This document shows positions 21,451-29,558 of a stretch of DNA of 64,000 nt, piece by piece. The position numbers and the translations under genes were made by a program. This stretch comes from a virus. The DNA lies in IMG/VR virus record IMGVR_UViG_3300039412_001263. One strand, 5' to 3'. A model generated the notes under the pieces. The model was not told where the DNA came from. It did not search any database and was given only the letters and a program-made list of their open reading frames with translations. The number at the start of each line of letters is the position of its first letter. The stretch's first letter is position 1.

Positions 21451-21843
21451 ATGACGAAATTACCAGACATCAATAGTAAGCTCAAGTATGCTACATTCAA
21501 GGCTAAGAACATTGAAGACGAAGGAATTATAAGAAATCTTAAAAAATTAGCTATCCAGGATGATTTAGAAATTGGTGATTTACTTCGAGAAGCTATCCGA
21601 CTTTTGTTTGTGCAACATCATTTAGATCAAGGTGGCAATCCTCAAACAACATTAGTTAACTATGACCAAACCAAATTAACTTCACTTGGTAAATGTTCCA
21701 TTAATTCCTGCAAACTTAAAGCTGCCGTTGCTGGAATAAATCTTCTAAGTAAAAAAGAGCATAGATTTTGCAAGAAACATTATGAGACATTGCCTCAGCG
21801 GCATGATTCTAAAGTTTGGCAGTTCAAGGAGGTTGCAACTTGA
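21451..21843 (+). CDS. RHH-like regulator with C-terminal Zn finger
   Basis: IRNLKKLAIQDDLEIGDLLREAIRLL; C..C...FCKKH. Confidence 0.7.
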   Translation: MTKLPDINSKLKYATFKAKNIEDEGIIRNLKKLAIQDDLEIGDLLREAIRLLFVQHHLDQGGNPQTTLVNYDQTKLTSLGKCSINSCKLKAAVAGINLLSKKEHRFCKKHYETLPQRHDSKVWQFKEVAT

Positions 21844-22898
21844 TGGGTTTGTCTCTTGAGGCTGAACGTGAGTGCCAAACACAATCATTGGTTTTAAACA
21901 GAAAATTATTTGCCACAATAGGAAAGAGCCCAACAGAATACTTACAGGATTTCTGCCCTAGCCCTAAAAGTTTTCAATCAAAAGAGATAGATGTGTTAAA
22001 TTTCTGCGAGAGAACTTGGTGTAACGAGTTTTATAATGTTCCGTTTAAAGCTAAAGTTTGCCGTGATAATGTTGCTGCCGCAGAGTTTGATAGTTATGAA
22101 GATTGGTTGAAGCAACTGCCGAAAGAAACAAAGACGCGGCTTATGAAGGCGAGAGAAAAAGGGCTTGAAGTTAAAATTATTGATCCGAATGCGCGTTCAT
22201 CGCCGTTTAGTGATGTGAAAGAAGGAGTTAAATTAGCAGAGGGTATTTGGAAGATTTATAATGAGACTCCTATCCGGCAATTTAGACGATTTAACCATTA
22301 TGGGGTTTCATTAGAAAGTGTACAGCAACATGTGTTTACAACTGACAACATCATTATAGGCGCGTATATTTGGGTAGAAGAAAAGTCGGATGGAGATGTA
22401 TTTCTCAAGCATAAGTTGGTTGGTTTTGTTGAACTTCAATGTGGAGAAGATACAGGTGTCTTTGGTCAAATATTGAGTTTAGTTTCTTTTCGTGATGTGA
22501 TGCCGAATAATGCTTTGATTGCGAAGGCTGTAAAAATATGTTCTGATAGGAATTTGCATTGGCTTGTTTATGCTCGTATGGGCAATCATCCAAGTCTTGA
22601 TGTGTTTAAAAGAAATAATGGTTTCAAAAAAGTAGAGATTAAACGATTTTATGTTCCGTTAACCCTGCGCGGAAGAATATTTTTACTGTTTAGTTTGCAA
22701 CGGAGTTTTAAGGATGGCGTACCGATGTTTCTGAAGTCACTGGGATTTCACTTATACAATTTAGCAAGTAGAATTGGTTTAAGATTTAATGGGAAGATGA
22801 TGAAGCGTGAATATTGGTGGCTTCTTGTTTTGCTCGTTTCTTATGTAGCGGTGTGTGTTACCGGAATCATGTACCTACACCTTAAAGGGTGGTTGTGA
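21843..22898 (+). CDS. GNAT-fold, FemAB/CelD-like acyl/aminoacyl transferase
   Basis: W...L.K..R....KA.EKGLEV...; KLVGF; NALIAKAVK.C; SLDVFKRNNGF pattern. Confidence 0.65.
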   Translation: MGLSLEAERECQTQSLVLNRKLFATIGKSPTEYLQDFCPSPKSFQSKEIDVLNFCERTWCNEFYNVPFKAKVCRDNVAAAEFDSYEDWLKQLPKETKTRLMKAREKGLEVKIIDPNARSSPFSDVKEGVKLAEGIWKIYNETPIRQFRRFNHYGVSLESVQQHVFTTDNIIIGAYIWVEEKSDGDVFLKHKLVGFVELQCGEDTGVFGQILSLVSFRDVMPNNALIAKAVKICSDRNLHWLVYARMGNHPSLDVFKRNNGFKKVEIKRFYVPLTLRGRIFLLFSLQRSFKDGVPMFLKSLGFHLYNLASRIGLRFNGKMMKREYWWLLVLLVSYVAVCVTGIMYLHLKGWL

Positions 22899-23898
22899 AA
22901 AAGTGCAAATAGATATTTGTATGTGGACTCGAAATGGTGAGAGGACTCTTGGTACAGTTTTAGATAGAATCAACCAAGTCATCCCTAAAAAAGTTGTTCA
23001 CGACAAATTTATTGTTGATGATCGAAGCGCAGATGCTACGAGAGATATAGCTTCAGCTAAAGGTTGGGATGTTTACTTAAACAAGGGCTCTGGAATTAGT
23101 GATGGAGCTAACACAGCTTTAAAATATGTTGAAACAGAGGTTTTTTGTAGTTTCGAGCAAGATGTTATTTTAGCTAAGGATTGGTGGAGCAAAGTTGCTA
23201 TGCCGTTCTTTGATTCTGATTTGGCTGCTAGTAGTGGAATGCGTTTTGTTTCTCAGCCAAAAGGCATGACTACGCTTTTCAAGTATGTGGCTAAGAAGTA
23301 TCGCGGTGAACAATTAAGCCCATGGCTTCGCAGTCGAGAAGCTAACGCTTTTACTTTAGGTAAGACTTTAGATAACACAATTTACCGCACAGAAGTTATG
23401 CGAAAAATTGGCGGGTTTCCAGTTATGAATGTTAATGCTGGTGTCGATACAGTATTAGCTTGGACATTAAAAAAGTATGGCTACAATTGGAAGGTAGATT
23501 ATAATGTTCAAAGCATTCACTTGCGGAAAGGTTTATTTGATGAATTGGAAAGGCAACGTTGGTATGGCACTCAGATTAAAGATATTTGGCGAGCAATGAG
23601 TAAGATCCAGATGAAATCTCCAGTTAACACTTGGAGTGTTATTTACCGGCTGTTTCTTGCGCCTTTCAGCGGACTCTTTGTAGCTCTTAAAACAAGAGAT
23701 GCTACAGTAACTTACATTCATCCTCTTATCAGATTTTATTACGCATGGGGTTTACTTAAAGGTCCAAGTAGACAGAAACATTATCAATGTTCAGACTGTG
23801 GGATGACAGTTACAAAAGTGATGTTCAACCCTGTTGACGGCAATTATTATTGCGAGAAATGTTTTGATAATCCAGAATTAATAGGTGAGTTTGATTGA
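22855..23898 (+). CDS. Glycosyltransferase family 2 (GT-A) with C-terminal Zn ribbon
   Basis: ICMWTRNGERTL...IVDDRSADAT...EQD; C-terminal CSDC...CEKC. True start is probably the in-frame GTG near 22907. Confidence 0.85.
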   Translation: MLPESCTYTLKGGCEKVQIDICMWTRNGERTLGTVLDRINQVIPKKVVHDKFIVDDRSADATRDIASAKGWDVYLNKGSGISDGANTALKYVETEVFCSFEQDVILAKDWWSKVAMPFFDSDLAASSGMRFVSQPKGMTTLFKYVAKKYRGEQLSPWLRSREANAFTLGKTLDNTIYRTEVMRKIGGFPVMNVNAGVDTVLAWTLKKYGYNWKVDYNVQSIHLRKGLFDELERQRWYGTQIKDIWRAMSKIQMKSPVNTWSVIYRLFLAPFSGLFVALKTRDATVTYIHPLIRFYYAWGLLKGPSRQKHYQCSDCGMTVTKVMFNPVDGNYYCEKCFDNPELIGEFD

Positions 23899-23914
23899 AG
23901 CAAAAAGTTAAAGA

Positions 23915-27777: not shown

Positions 27778-27780
27778 AAA

Positions 27781-28665
27781 ATGAAGGCTACCTTGCGCTC
27801 TTGTTTGGCTGTGTTGCCTAAACTTGGATTAGTGAAGAAACCAAATTTCCACAAAGAAGGAATAACCTTTATCATTGCAGTTAAAGATGAGGAACAATGG
27901 ATTAAACCCTGCATTTTATCCATAGAGCCTGTAGCAGACGAAATCATAATTGTTGACAGCTCAATCCAAGATAATACTACCAACATAATTGAATCGTTAG
28001 CAAAAAAATGTGATAAAATCAAGCATATACAATTCTACTGTGAAAATGTTCATGCTTTTGCTCTATCGTTACACATAGGCTTAGTCAATGCTAATTATAA
28101 GTGGGTGTTTAAGTGGGATGGCGATTTCGTTGCCAAGAGTCCTGAAGCCCTGATGGAATGGAAAGATAGGCTTGGCAGGTTGGACAAGAAAGAGTATTTT
28201 GTAATTAACCTTCCTAGAGTGAATTTTGAAGGTGACTTGAAGCATCAGCCAAAGAACTGTCCATTCGGAATTTACGAAGCAAGACTTTTCACTTGGAGTC
28301 CAGAACTTAAATGGGCATTGAAAAACAATTATTGGGAGCAGGTCTGTGGCGATAGTGTTTGGGGGCATCGTTTTCCACCGTGGTACAGAATACTGCGATG
28401 GCGTGAACCCTACATTTTCCATTGTAATATTAAGAATCCTAAACGGATGCTTATGCGGATGTTCTTGGCAGACTATTTTATTGCAAAAGATCCACGCTTT
28501 CCTAGTCTGTTGGATTACACGATTTATAGGGTTAAGAATGATTGGCACATGAGTCTATCAGATGCCCAAAATAAAATAATGAATGATAACCAAAAAAATC
28601 TCATACCTTATGGCAACGATAAATACGGAGAGTTGCCTGTGTTTCTTAAAAACTTAATGGAGTGA
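27781..28665 (+). CDS. Glycosyltransferase family 2 (GT-A)
   Basis: FIIAVKDEEQWI..CI.SI...ADEIIIVDS...WDGD. Confidence 0.85.
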   Translation: MKATLRSCLAVLPKLGLVKKPNFHKEGITFIIAVKDEEQWIKPCILSIEPVADEIIIVDSSIQDNTTNIIESLAKKCDKIKHIQFYCENVHAFALSLHIGLVNANYKWVFKWDGDFVAKSPEALMEWKDRLGRLDKKEYFVINLPRVNFEGDLKHQPKNCPFGIYEARLFTWSPELKWALKNNYWEQVCGDSVWGHRFPPWYRILRWREPYIFHCNIKNPKRMLMRMFLADYFIAKDPRFPSLLDYTIYRVKNDWHMSLSDAQNKIMNDNQKNLIPYGNDKYGELPVFLKNLME

Positions 28666-29558
28666 GCGAGCTAATGATTGATAAAATGAAAGTTCTATTA
28701 AGAAAATTAAGAAACGAAATTTTTTATATTTTTTATATGGGGGTAGATTTAAAAGAAAGATTGCTTAACCAACGAGACAAACTTGTACCCCCCATGAAAC
28801 TAAGAAGACTTGTTGGCAGTACAAGTATTTCTGATTTTAAATCTGTCGGAAAAGATTTCCTTAAATGTTTTATTGAACTTGGCGAGTTAAAACACAATGA
28901 TAAAGTTCTTGATGTAGGTTGTGGTGTTGGCAGGATAGCTGTTGCTTTAACACAATATCTGAATGAAGAAGGTATCTATGAAGGCTTCGATGTTGACGCT
29001 GAACAGGTAAATTGGGCAAGGAAGAACATCGCACCTGAGTTTCCGAACTTTCACTTTAGATTTGTGGATATTCAAAACTCAAATTTTAATCCCAAAGGAA
29101 AAGATGCTGCTACCAACTTCAACTTTCCATACCCCGATAATCATTTTGACTTCGTTTTTCTCACATCTGTATTTACTCACATGCTACTAAAAGAAATAGA
29201 AAGATACCTCTCAGAAATTGTTCGAGTAACAAAACCTAATGGAAAAGTTTTGGTCACATTTTTCTTATTAAACAAAGAAACAGAAATAAGTAAACAGAAC
29301 GCATTTGATTTCAAATATAAAATCGGTGATGGCGTATTTACTGTTGACTCTATCACTCCAGAAAGCGCGGTTGCTTATGATGAACAACTTATTCGTGACC
29401 TCTACAAGAATCACAAGTTAACTGTGACAGAGCCAATTTACTATGGTTTTTGGAGTGGAAGAAAAAGTTGTCTTAATGGGCAAGATATTGTAATTGCTCG
29501 TAAACTGTCACCTTCATCTACGGCAAATAAAACATCACTATTCGAGGTTTCAAAATGA
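28662..29558 (+). CDS. Class I SAM-dependent methyltransferase
   Basis: VLDVGCGVGR; FPYPDNHFDFVFLTSVFTH; KPNG. Confidence 0.9.
   Translation: MSELMIDKMKVLLRKLRNEIFYIFYMGVDLKERLLNQRDKLVPPMKLRRLVGSTSISDFKSVGKDFLKCFIELGELKHNDKVLDVGCGVGRIAVALTQYLNEEGIYEGFDVDAEQVNWARKNIAPEFPNFHFRFVDIQNSNFNPKGKDAATNFNFPYPDNHFDFVFLTSVFTHMLLKEIERYLSEIVRVTKPNGKVLVTFFLLNKETEISKQNAFDFKYKIGDGVFTVDSITPESAVAYDEQLIRDLYKNHKLTVTEPIYYGFWSGRKSCLNGQDIVIARKLSPSSTANKTSLFEVSK

Follow-up and report, generated by a model that had tools for sequence, protein, structure and literature searches.

A putative glycan-tailoring cassette with a radical SAM enzyme pair on a probably integrating 50.1-kb circle, most likely a temperate archaeal virus

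The 64,000-nt stretch of DNA analysed here (the window; IMG/VR virus record IMGVR_UViG_3300039412_001263) carries between positions 21843 and 29558 a cassette of eight enzymes, comprising glycosyltransferases (GTs), radical S-adenosylmethionine (SAM) enzymes (rSAMs), methyltransferases and a GNAT-type transferase, which raises the question of what these enzymes make together and why an apparent virus should carry them. The answer favoured here, with moderate confidence, is that the cassette tailors glycans, that the pathway was taken over from polysaccharide or N-glycan loci of cells and that it is now carried by a probably integrating 50.1-kb circle, most likely a temperate non-tailed archaeal virus. 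The product is most likely a methylated, acyl- or amino-acid-decorated sugar chain destined for the surface of the host or for the particle of the virus. The genes of the cassette and of the array in which it lies are as follows (ORF, open reading frame; TM, transmembrane).

21451..21843 (+), ribbon-helix-helix-like regulator with a Cys/His-rich tail, first gene of the array (weak Antitox_RHH match, E 1e-3)
21843..22898 (+), putative tandem-GNAT (FemX/FemA/MprF/Sbb17-like) acyl- or aminoacyltransferase with a C-terminal TM tail
22855..23898 (+), GT2 with a C-terminal CxxC...CxxC zinc ribbon (Pfam GT2; NCBIfam cxxc_cxxc domain)
23915..25261 (+), class B (B12-binding) radical SAM enzyme (Pfam)
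25313..25891 (+), short GT-A-like protein of 192 aa (sub-cutoff Glyco_transf_7C; conserved over its full length)
25893..26081 (+), 62-aa ORF, possibly not a gene (no family match; not conserved)
26078..27157 (+), radical SAM-like protein with Cx10CxxC and a Cys-rich SPASM/twitch-like C-terminus (Radical_SAM just below cutoff)
27067..27777 (+), Methyltransf_24-type SAM methyltransferase, the true start likely near 27208 (Pfam, 50.9 bits)
27781..28665 (+), GT2 with a DGD motif (Pfam, 36.2 bits; weak GtrB-like PHROG match; weak GmaR match in the PDB)
28662..29558 (+), class I SAM methyltransferase, Methyltransf_11/25 (Pfam, 62.6 bits)
29555..31627 (+), remainder of the array: a 53-aa ORF, a ParB-N protein (Pfam ParB_N, 63.1 bits), a Zn-ribbon/helix-turn-helix protein and a 256-aa protein

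An initial annotation, made from the letters of the sequence, had described a co-oriented and tightly packed operon devoted to writing a surface glycan. The packing is borne out: all genes of the cassette run in one direction, and the junctions lie between -44 and +51 nt. The gap-free array proves wider than 21843-29558, spanning 21451 to 31627 with a 138-nt AT-rich gap upstream of the regulator gene. The eight enzymes and a GT-C membrane protein encoded elsewhere on the element (see below) together take up ~17% of the genome.

That the cassette belongs to the making or tailoring of glycans was checked by profile assignment and synteny and is supported, its closest relatives lying in polysaccharide loci. 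The gene order of the window recurs on contig L001, where homologs of the GT2 (39% identity), the B12-binding rSAM (B12-rSAM; 60%), the short GT (75%) and the second rSAM (46%) follow one another, and the pair of B12-rSAM and short GT is kept on L016 and L019. On L002 a B12-rSAM homolog of 60% identity stands with RmlA, RmlD, a GT2, an RGP-family protein, a methyltransferase, a GT2 that is 56% identical to the first GT2 of the window (22855-23898) and a UDP-glucose dehydrogenase. A 431-kb cellular contig (L007) holds three tandem B12-rSAM paralogs in a full polysaccharide locus that includes GT2, GT4, epimerases/dehydratases, a sugar nucleotidyltransferase, a Wzx-type flippase, DegT and RmlD. 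On a further, 40-kb contig (L115; IMGVR_UViG_3300015370_000028) a hexapeptide acyltransferase, DegT, a GT2 and a B12-rSAM 35% identical to that of the window stand in a row at 7486-11182, with a 517-aa double GT further along, in what appears from its gene content to be another virus-associated sugar-tailoring block. The synteny of the relatives, their sugar-pathway neighbours and the solved relatives of the B12-rSAM thus place the cassette in sugar chemistry, and its assignment to glycan biosynthesis or tailoring is supported by these comparisons of sequence. They also show that glycan loci of cells were its source; with identities of 39-75% to the best homologs, the capture was not a recent one.

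Two of the GTs are sound. Both GT2 proteins exceed the Pfam PF00535 cutoff of 23.3 bits and carry DxD-type motifs, the first (22855-23898) scoring 34.5 bits with VDD and EQD and the second (27781-28665) scoring 36.2 bits with VDS and DGD. The first also has a zinc ribbon (CxxC-x17-CxxC) at residues ~305-345, which is an extra of this protein because the alignments to the 39% (L001) and 56% (L002) identical homologs cover residues 17-303 only. The match of the second to a GtrB-like PHROG is weak and confined to its N-terminal part (E 2e-5). Of the three GT-A enzymes initially proposed these two stand, while the third is an N-terminally short GT-A-like protein that is considered further below.

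The enzyme that opens the cassette (21843-22898) had been called a FemAB-like GNAT, and its predicted structure and its relatives agree. The protein itself has no Pfam match; among 50 sampled members of its family of 437 homologs, Acetyltransf_1 was found in 11, Acetyltransf_6 in 10 and FemAB in seven. Its AlphaFold2 model (predicted local distance difference test, pLDDT, 90.5) shows the two fused GNAT lobes expected of FemABX proteins and gives Foldseek matches to Sbb17, FemX, FemA, MprF and VipF (E 1e-9 to 1e-6; TM-score 0.45-0.56), and a hydrophobic C-terminal helix forms a tail. With the acetyl-CoA users VipF and Eis in the same Foldseek list, the fold does not set whether the donor is an aminoacyl-tRNA or an acyl-CoA.

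A GT-C-like membrane protein had been singled out outside the cassette, and its fold is clear. Its gene overlaps that of a small membrane protein by 38 nt.

40034..40351 (+), small membrane protein with three predicted TM segments (weak Polysacc_synt_3 match, E 0.0097)
40314..41393 (+), minimal GT-C of 359 aa consisting of the membrane domain only (fold and family profile)

The AlphaFold2 model of the GT-C protein (pLDDT 91.8) returned GT-C proteins as all of its top-40 Foldseek matches, and superposed on STT3, AglB, PglB, Pmt and ArnT with VIA Z scores of 21-25 over 300-334 of the 359 residues (root-mean-square deviation 3.6-4.6 A), so that the predicted structure places it in the GT-C superfamily. 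A profile of its family finds PMT_2 proteins (E 5e-15); the 29 homologs, on contigs of up to 52 kb, carry no Pfam domain. Asp44 and His48, directly after the first TM helix, are invariant in 27 sequences. Comprising the membrane domain only, the protein falls outside the AglB-type oligosaccharyltransferases: its last membrane helix closes the chain at residue 359, the matches cover the membrane part of the oligosaccharyltransferases (to ~480-500), and the soluble C-terminal domain with WWDYG that marks AglB, STT3 and PglB is absent. An invariant W-A-D-R (PFWADRW, residues 293-298) was also noted in a late external loop and, with the invariant D142, D153 and H183, supplies candidate active-site residues. 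The 40034-40351 protein has no match to the GtrA Pfam family; that it is a carrier-lipid (GtrA-like) flippase partner of the GT-C is possible and unsupported.

The B12-rSAM (23915-25261), correctly recognised at the outset, scores above cutoff for both of its domains (PF02310, 40.5 bits against 32.1; PF04055, 66.3 against 29.5), and its C191-x3-C195-x2-C198 is invariant, as expected of a class B enzyme. It has 791 homologs, with identities of 60-68% on short metagenome contigs, and its relatives in the PDB include OxsB, AprD4, TokK and CysS, of which OxsB and AprD4 are sugar- and nucleoside-remodelling enzymes. The best NCBIfam match is HpnJ (TIGR03471), aligning near end-to-end (protein residues 66-397 with profile positions 65-404 of 472), with 137.5 bits against a cutoff of 577.6, so that the protein is not an HpnJ equivalog. 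HpnJ acts in the formation of the hopanoid cyclitol ether, and the contraction or rearrangement of a sugar is also carried out by the radical SAM calditol synthase of Sulfolobus.

This likeness underlies an alternative in which the cassette would remodel membrane glycolipid head groups, a GT2 placing a sugar on a lipid, the B12-rSAM contracting or rearranging it and the MprF/FemX-like protein aminoacylating it, with a changed host membrane or viral envelope as the result. The pairing of GT2 with B12-rSAM, as in HpnI/HpnK/HpnJ, the near end-to-end HpnJ match, the resemblance of the membrane-tailed tandem GNAT to the aminoacyl-lipid synthase domains of MprF and the many membrane proteins of the element are all consistent with it. 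It is nonetheless judged unlikely: the HpnJ score (137 against 577) is a quarter of the family cutoff, the HpnK deacetylase is absent and the context is polysaccharide, not hopanoid, with relatives beside RmlA/D, DegT and Wzx flippase, which are markers of oligo- or polysaccharide units, while three GT-type genes and two methyltransferases exceed the needs of a head group. Tailoring of a sugar chain is preferred here.

As a separate observation, the tandem B12-rSAM paralogs occur three at a time in polysaccharide loci of two cellular-type contigs, L007:8530-13130 and L003:4661-9349, and in L007 they are followed by GT2, RGP-family protein and methyltransferase genes.

The short GT-A-like protein (25313-25891) scores 18.1 bits for Glyco_transf_7C, where the cutoff is 23, and aligns with GT2 by hhalign from the first Asp motif onwards (probability 44%, E 2e-4). 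Its GYGKARN, NDD and FEDGDF motifs are invariant, and proteins of the same length with 53-75% identity over the full length are found in L001, L016 and L019. Since length and motifs are kept on three other contigs, it represents a conserved family and is not a pseudogene. The point bears on whether the cassette is simply a passenger, a recently acquired host surface-polysaccharide island with no adaptive role and possibly in decay. For this one may cite the cellular-type polysaccharide contexts in which all of the closest homologs lie, the missing N-terminal part of the short GT and the lack of conservation of the ORF at 25893-26081. The shortness is, however, a family feature shared with the three other contigs and hence not decay, and capture and inactivation in the recent past, which had been named as an outcome that would overturn the glycan reading, is not what is seen: the catalytic residues of the B12-rSAM, the rSAM and the short GT are invariant across homologs and the genes intact, and the best homologs are only 39-75% identical, hence the capture is not recent. 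The junctions are moreover tight and coupled, the element's own regulator gene heads the array, and the GC content of the cassette (37-39%) is no outlier in an element of 34-44% throughout. An inert passenger is accordingly regarded as improbable, and a working glycan-tailoring pathway is the interpretation retained.

The second rSAM (26078-27157) had been labelled a SPASM enzyme. The Cys-rich C-terminus stands, with C273, C290, C291, C331 and C334 invariant, and one family member (P0333) matches the whole SPASM profile just under threshold (PF13186, 20.1 bits against 21.5; E 8e-4), while the window protein itself has no SPASM match and bears a non-canonical Cx10CxxC. That motif, C42-x10-C53-x2-C56, is invariant in 12 sequences, as are six further Cys, and these 12 are the only homologs among 5.8 billion clusters searched. 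For PF04055 the protein scores 27.3 bits against 29.5, and eight homologs carry a precomputed PF04055 match. Some homologs of this rSAM or of the B12-rSAM lie on contigs 48-60 kb in length.

rSAM/SPASM, B12-rSAM and methyltransferase genes are also a common set in pathways for ribosomally synthesised and post-translationally modified peptides (RiPPs), in which case the cassette would mature a small peptide, such as the product of the 62-aa ORF at 25893-26081 that abuts the rSAM gene. RiPP C-methyltransferases are among the lower NCBIfam matches, and the second GT2 (27781-28665) weakly matches a SunS-type S-glycosyltransferase (E 1e-5). Against this, the ORF is absent from the syntenic L001, where the rSAM directly follows the short GT, so that no conserved precursor is seen; protease, transporter and RiPP recognition element were not found; and the neighbours of the family are Rml, DegT and Wzx genes. 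The maturation of a RiPP or another small molecule is therefore very unlikely beside a role in glycan tailoring.

The two methyltransferases are as initially described, Methyltransf_24-like (27067-27777, 50.9 bits) and class I (28662-29558, 62.6 bits). DNA base hypermodification had been kept as an alternative; the reading that the element furnishes its DNA or RNA with glycosylated, methylated or acylated bases to evade restriction now finds almost no support, being the least probable of the readings weighed, since a match of the Methyltransf_24 protein to phrog_2675 "DNA methyltransferase" (E 1e-15), a ParB-N protein and a weak MazG-like protein downstream of the cassette, and the nucleoside-modifying OxsB among the solved relatives are set against the absence of any base hydroxymethylase, nucleotide kinase, DNA glycosyltransferase family or polymerase among ORFs of at least 110 aa, an enzyme with a membrane tail, a GT-C that works outside the cell and relatives in a context of sugar-nucleotide and flippase genes.

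The enzymes can be arranged in a pathway of six steps, of which steps 2 and 3 are read from family assignments, while we infer steps 1, 4, 5 and 6 together with the step order, the carrier and the target. In step 1, host enzymes would supply nucleotide sugars and prime a polyprenyl- or dolichyl-phosphate carrier; these host supplies must be tapped because the element is without nucleotide-sugar, priming and flippase genes. In step 2 the two soluble GT2 proteins, perhaps with the short GT-A-like protein, would add sugars at the cytoplasmic face, so building up an oligosaccharide linked to the carrier. In step 3 the B12-rSAM and its partner rSAM would remodel the carbon skeleton of a sugar by C-methylation, ring rearrangement, deoxygenation or epimerisation, with methyl groups added by the two SAM methyltransferases. 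In step 4 the membrane-tailed FemX/MprF-like tandem GNAT would put an acyl or aminoacyl group on the membrane-bound intermediate, and in step 5, after flipping, the minimal GT-C would act at the outer face, transferring sugar from a polyprenyl-phosphate lipid carrier onto an acceptor. Step 6 would be an altered glycan of the host surface or the virion; by analogy with gtrABC/oac conversion and mycobacteriophage virion glycosylation, it could mask receptors or exclude superinfecting viruses in lysogens, or decorate the particle. Archaeal N-glycans with methylated and amino-acid-modified (threonine) sugars are documented (PMC11407970).

What carries the cassette can be told in part from the assembly. 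The window runs 1.28 times round a circle of 50,099 bp, positions 1-13901 and 50100-64000 aligning with 0 mismatches. More than 50 assembled contigs, ~50.1-50.2 kb long in some cases and 86, 147, 236 and 423 kb in others, encode proteins of the window with an identity of 99.2-100%. With copies on both ~50.1-kb and 86-423-kb contigs the element probably exists both free and chromosome-integrated, and its two tyrosine-recombinase genes fit this. Among the recurring proteins are those of 1421-4300, 6023-6400, 23915-25261 and 37104-38150, and the copies show no truncation except differing start calls or contig ends. The backbone includes the following genes, as well as an HNH nuclease and many small membrane proteins (from TM prediction).

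6023-6400, candidate two-helix hydrophobic protein of 125 aa, capsid-like candidate (no family match)
36300-36950 (-), tyrosine recombinase (Phage_integrase, 50.6 bits; phrog_216, phrog_1)
37104-38150 (-), DnaA-like/Zot-like P-loop ATPase (phrog_5484, E 1.5e-10; Atlas neighbours viral or Thermoproteota)

The 125-aa two-helix hydrophobic protein, the ATPase and the integrase suggest a virus, and boxes of the TTTAAATA and TTATATAA types that precede operon starts by ~40-50 nt, with the viral or Thermoproteota neighbours of the ATPase, point to an archaeal host, so that the element is most likely a temperate non-tailed archaeal virus. Of the traits of spindle-shaped and other non-tailed archaeal viruses, an integrase is present, the ATPase matches phrog_5484 (E 1.5e-10) and the two-helix candidate at 6023-6400 has no family match. 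Neither a DNA search of deposited phages with the cassette nor tblastn searches of phages with the ATPase, the GT-C and the GNAT gave a match, and the ATPase likewise found none in plasmids by tblastn; the B12-rSAM found only remote matches in phages (identity no higher than 26%). Scans of IMG/VR with the B12-rSAM, a 917-aa protein and the ATPase singly, and with alignments of the GT-C and the rSAM, gave no match, and a scan with an alignment of the B12-rSAM found three remote viral contigs. In 329 Methanobacteriota genomes only distant PMT_2 relatives of the GT-C were found and no provirus, and a species-genome scan with the B12-rSAM family returned homologs of at most 43% identity, mostly bacterial. 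No tRNA genes were detected in the window. The predicted model of the 917-aa protein reached a pLDDT of only 0.37, and an Atlas structure search with it was uninformative.

Several observations weigh against the interpretation favoured here. On the enzymes, the short protein at 25313-25891 lacks the first Rossmann strands and hence a complete GT-A domain, the second rSAM has no canonical Cx3Cx2C and falls below the Pfam threshold, and the phrog_2675 match of the Methyltransf_24 protein, at domain level to part of a 599-position profile, carries a "DNA methyltransferase" label that, with the nearby ParB-N protein, marks the limit of the support for nucleic-acid modification. On the pathway, the cassette holds no priming transferase, flippase or nucleotide-sugar genes, and the GT-C gene lies 11 kb away from it, so that their co-function is assumed. 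On the acceptor, NxS/T sequons are not enriched. The initial annotation had remarked on their abundance; the number stands, with 56 counted in the secreted proteins, while shuffling gives 56.1 as the expectation from composition. On the carrier, no capsid, portal, terminase or conjugation families were detected by PHROGs and Pfam in 30 backbone proteins, and because no virus hallmark protein was detected the element could instead be an integrative plasmid. The nearest named homologs of the B12-rSAM (~40%) are mostly bacterial, from Anaerolineae and Omnitrophota, which bears on the host domain.

A more specific proposal is put forward tentatively and with considerable doubt: that a temperate archaeal virus converts the surface of its host as a lysogen, or coats its particle, with a glycan outside the repertoire of any set of host enzymes, its sugar carbon-remodelled by the dedicated rSAM pair (the B12-dependent enzyme and that of the new Cx10CxxC family of 12 sequences), aminoacylated by the membrane-tethered FemX/MprF-like protein and installed outside the cell by the minimal, virus-family-specific GT-C. 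If true, archaea would thereby have their first Gtr-like conversion system, and the rSAM pair would be a new one for sugar tailoring.

The modification of glycans by viruses is well known, from Gtr/Oac in enterobacterial phages and virion glycosylation in mycobacteriophages to autonomous glycosylation in giant viruses, and the cassette is an unusual variant of this known strategy rather than a new kind of system. With gtrABC/oac modules, temperate phages of Shigella and Salmonella bring about conversion of the O-antigen. Like them, the element studied here would be temperate, with GT2 and GT-C altering a surface glycan through a lipid-phosphate carrier and receptor masking or superinfection exclusion as the pay-off. 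The modules differ from it in that the GT-C here is 11 kb from the GT2 genes instead of adjacent to them, the GtrA family finds no match and the GtrB-like match (PHROG 841 "GtrB-like O-antigen conversion") is weak; two radical SAM enzymes, two methyltransferases and a FemX-like transferase are added, and the host is probably archaeal.

Virion O-glycosylation has been demonstrated in the mycobacteriophages Che8, Corndog and Myrna (Freeman et al. 2023, summarised in PMC12363180). According to that summary these too have virus-encoded sets of GTs and methyltransferases, there decorating the phages' own structural proteins; they are tailed phages and, as far as the summary describes them, use soluble GTs with no GT-C, radical SAM or FemX-like enzyme, whereas here virion glycosylation is a candidate outcome.

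Archaeal Agl islands offer a cellular comparison, with AglJ/G/I/E/D/P/R/S/B in Haloferax and the Agl pathways of Methanococcus (PMC11407970). GT2 enzymes acting on dolichyl-phosphate carriers, methylated and amino-acid-modified sugars and a GT-C step at the outer face would be shared features, and relatives of the cassette lie in such cellular loci. However, an AglB-type oligosaccharyltransferase and nucleotide-sugar genes are absent here, the locus is on a mobile element and the rSAM pair lies outside every characterised Agl pathway.

Among archaeal viruses, a GT lies beside the sequon-bearing VP1/VP3 in the Bathyarchaeia spindle-shaped "Huangdivirus" (PMC10541130), and glycan genes have been exchanged between Nitrososphaeria viruses and their hosts (bioRxiv 10.1101/2025.08.23.671958). 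Host-derived glycosylation genes and an integrase are points of likeness, and a small hydrophobic capsid-like protein would be another, but one or two GTs are described in those papers and no multi-step pathway like the present one, in which an eight-enzyme pathway with a GT-C occupies ~17% of the genome. Three things are unusual here: how large the pathway is, that B12-rSAM, half-size GT-A and Cx10CxxC rSAM form a conserved triad, and that the GT-C family (29 homologs) is unannotated. If the interpretation is correct, this would be a concrete and testable instance in which a mobile element of archaea converts a surface glycan, devoting ~17% of a 50-kb genome to a radical-SAM sugar pathway and GT-C, and for glycoenzymology it would bring three uncharacterised families in a defined partnership (the B12-rSAM clade, its Cx10CxxC rSAM partner and the half-size GT-A). 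This value is tempered in that we infer the product, target, host and virus status alike.

The cassette had also been paired with surface-displayed glycan "erasers", a GH5 and an SGNH protein, as a self/non-self editing system. The SGNH hydrolase holds, as a secreted and anchored protein.

13148..14596 (-), secreted, anchored SGNH/GDSL hydrolase (Lipase_GDSL_2, 71.4 bits; TM segments at residues 21 and 426)

The GH5 reading finds no support at sequence level: the 959-aa anchored protein at 1421-4300 (+) has no Pfam match, and its first 420 residues have no sequence match in the PDB. What is left of the proposed writer and eraser pairing is thus the SGNH hydrolase. The secreted or anchored proteins are also rich in Ser and Thr, at 20-30% of residues against 5-15% in the cytoplasmic enzymes, which could point to O-glycosylation instead. 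The set comprises the following genes.

1421-4300
6468-7379
8591-9304
9465-13136
13148-14596 (-)
49477-50766

One further gene of the array may extend its radical SAM content. The 256-aa protein that ends it (30857-31627, +) gave no Pfam, PHROG or PDB sequence match and carries a CVWNCPNC (Cx3Cx2C) motif near its N-terminus, by which it may be a third radical-SAM-like enzyme.

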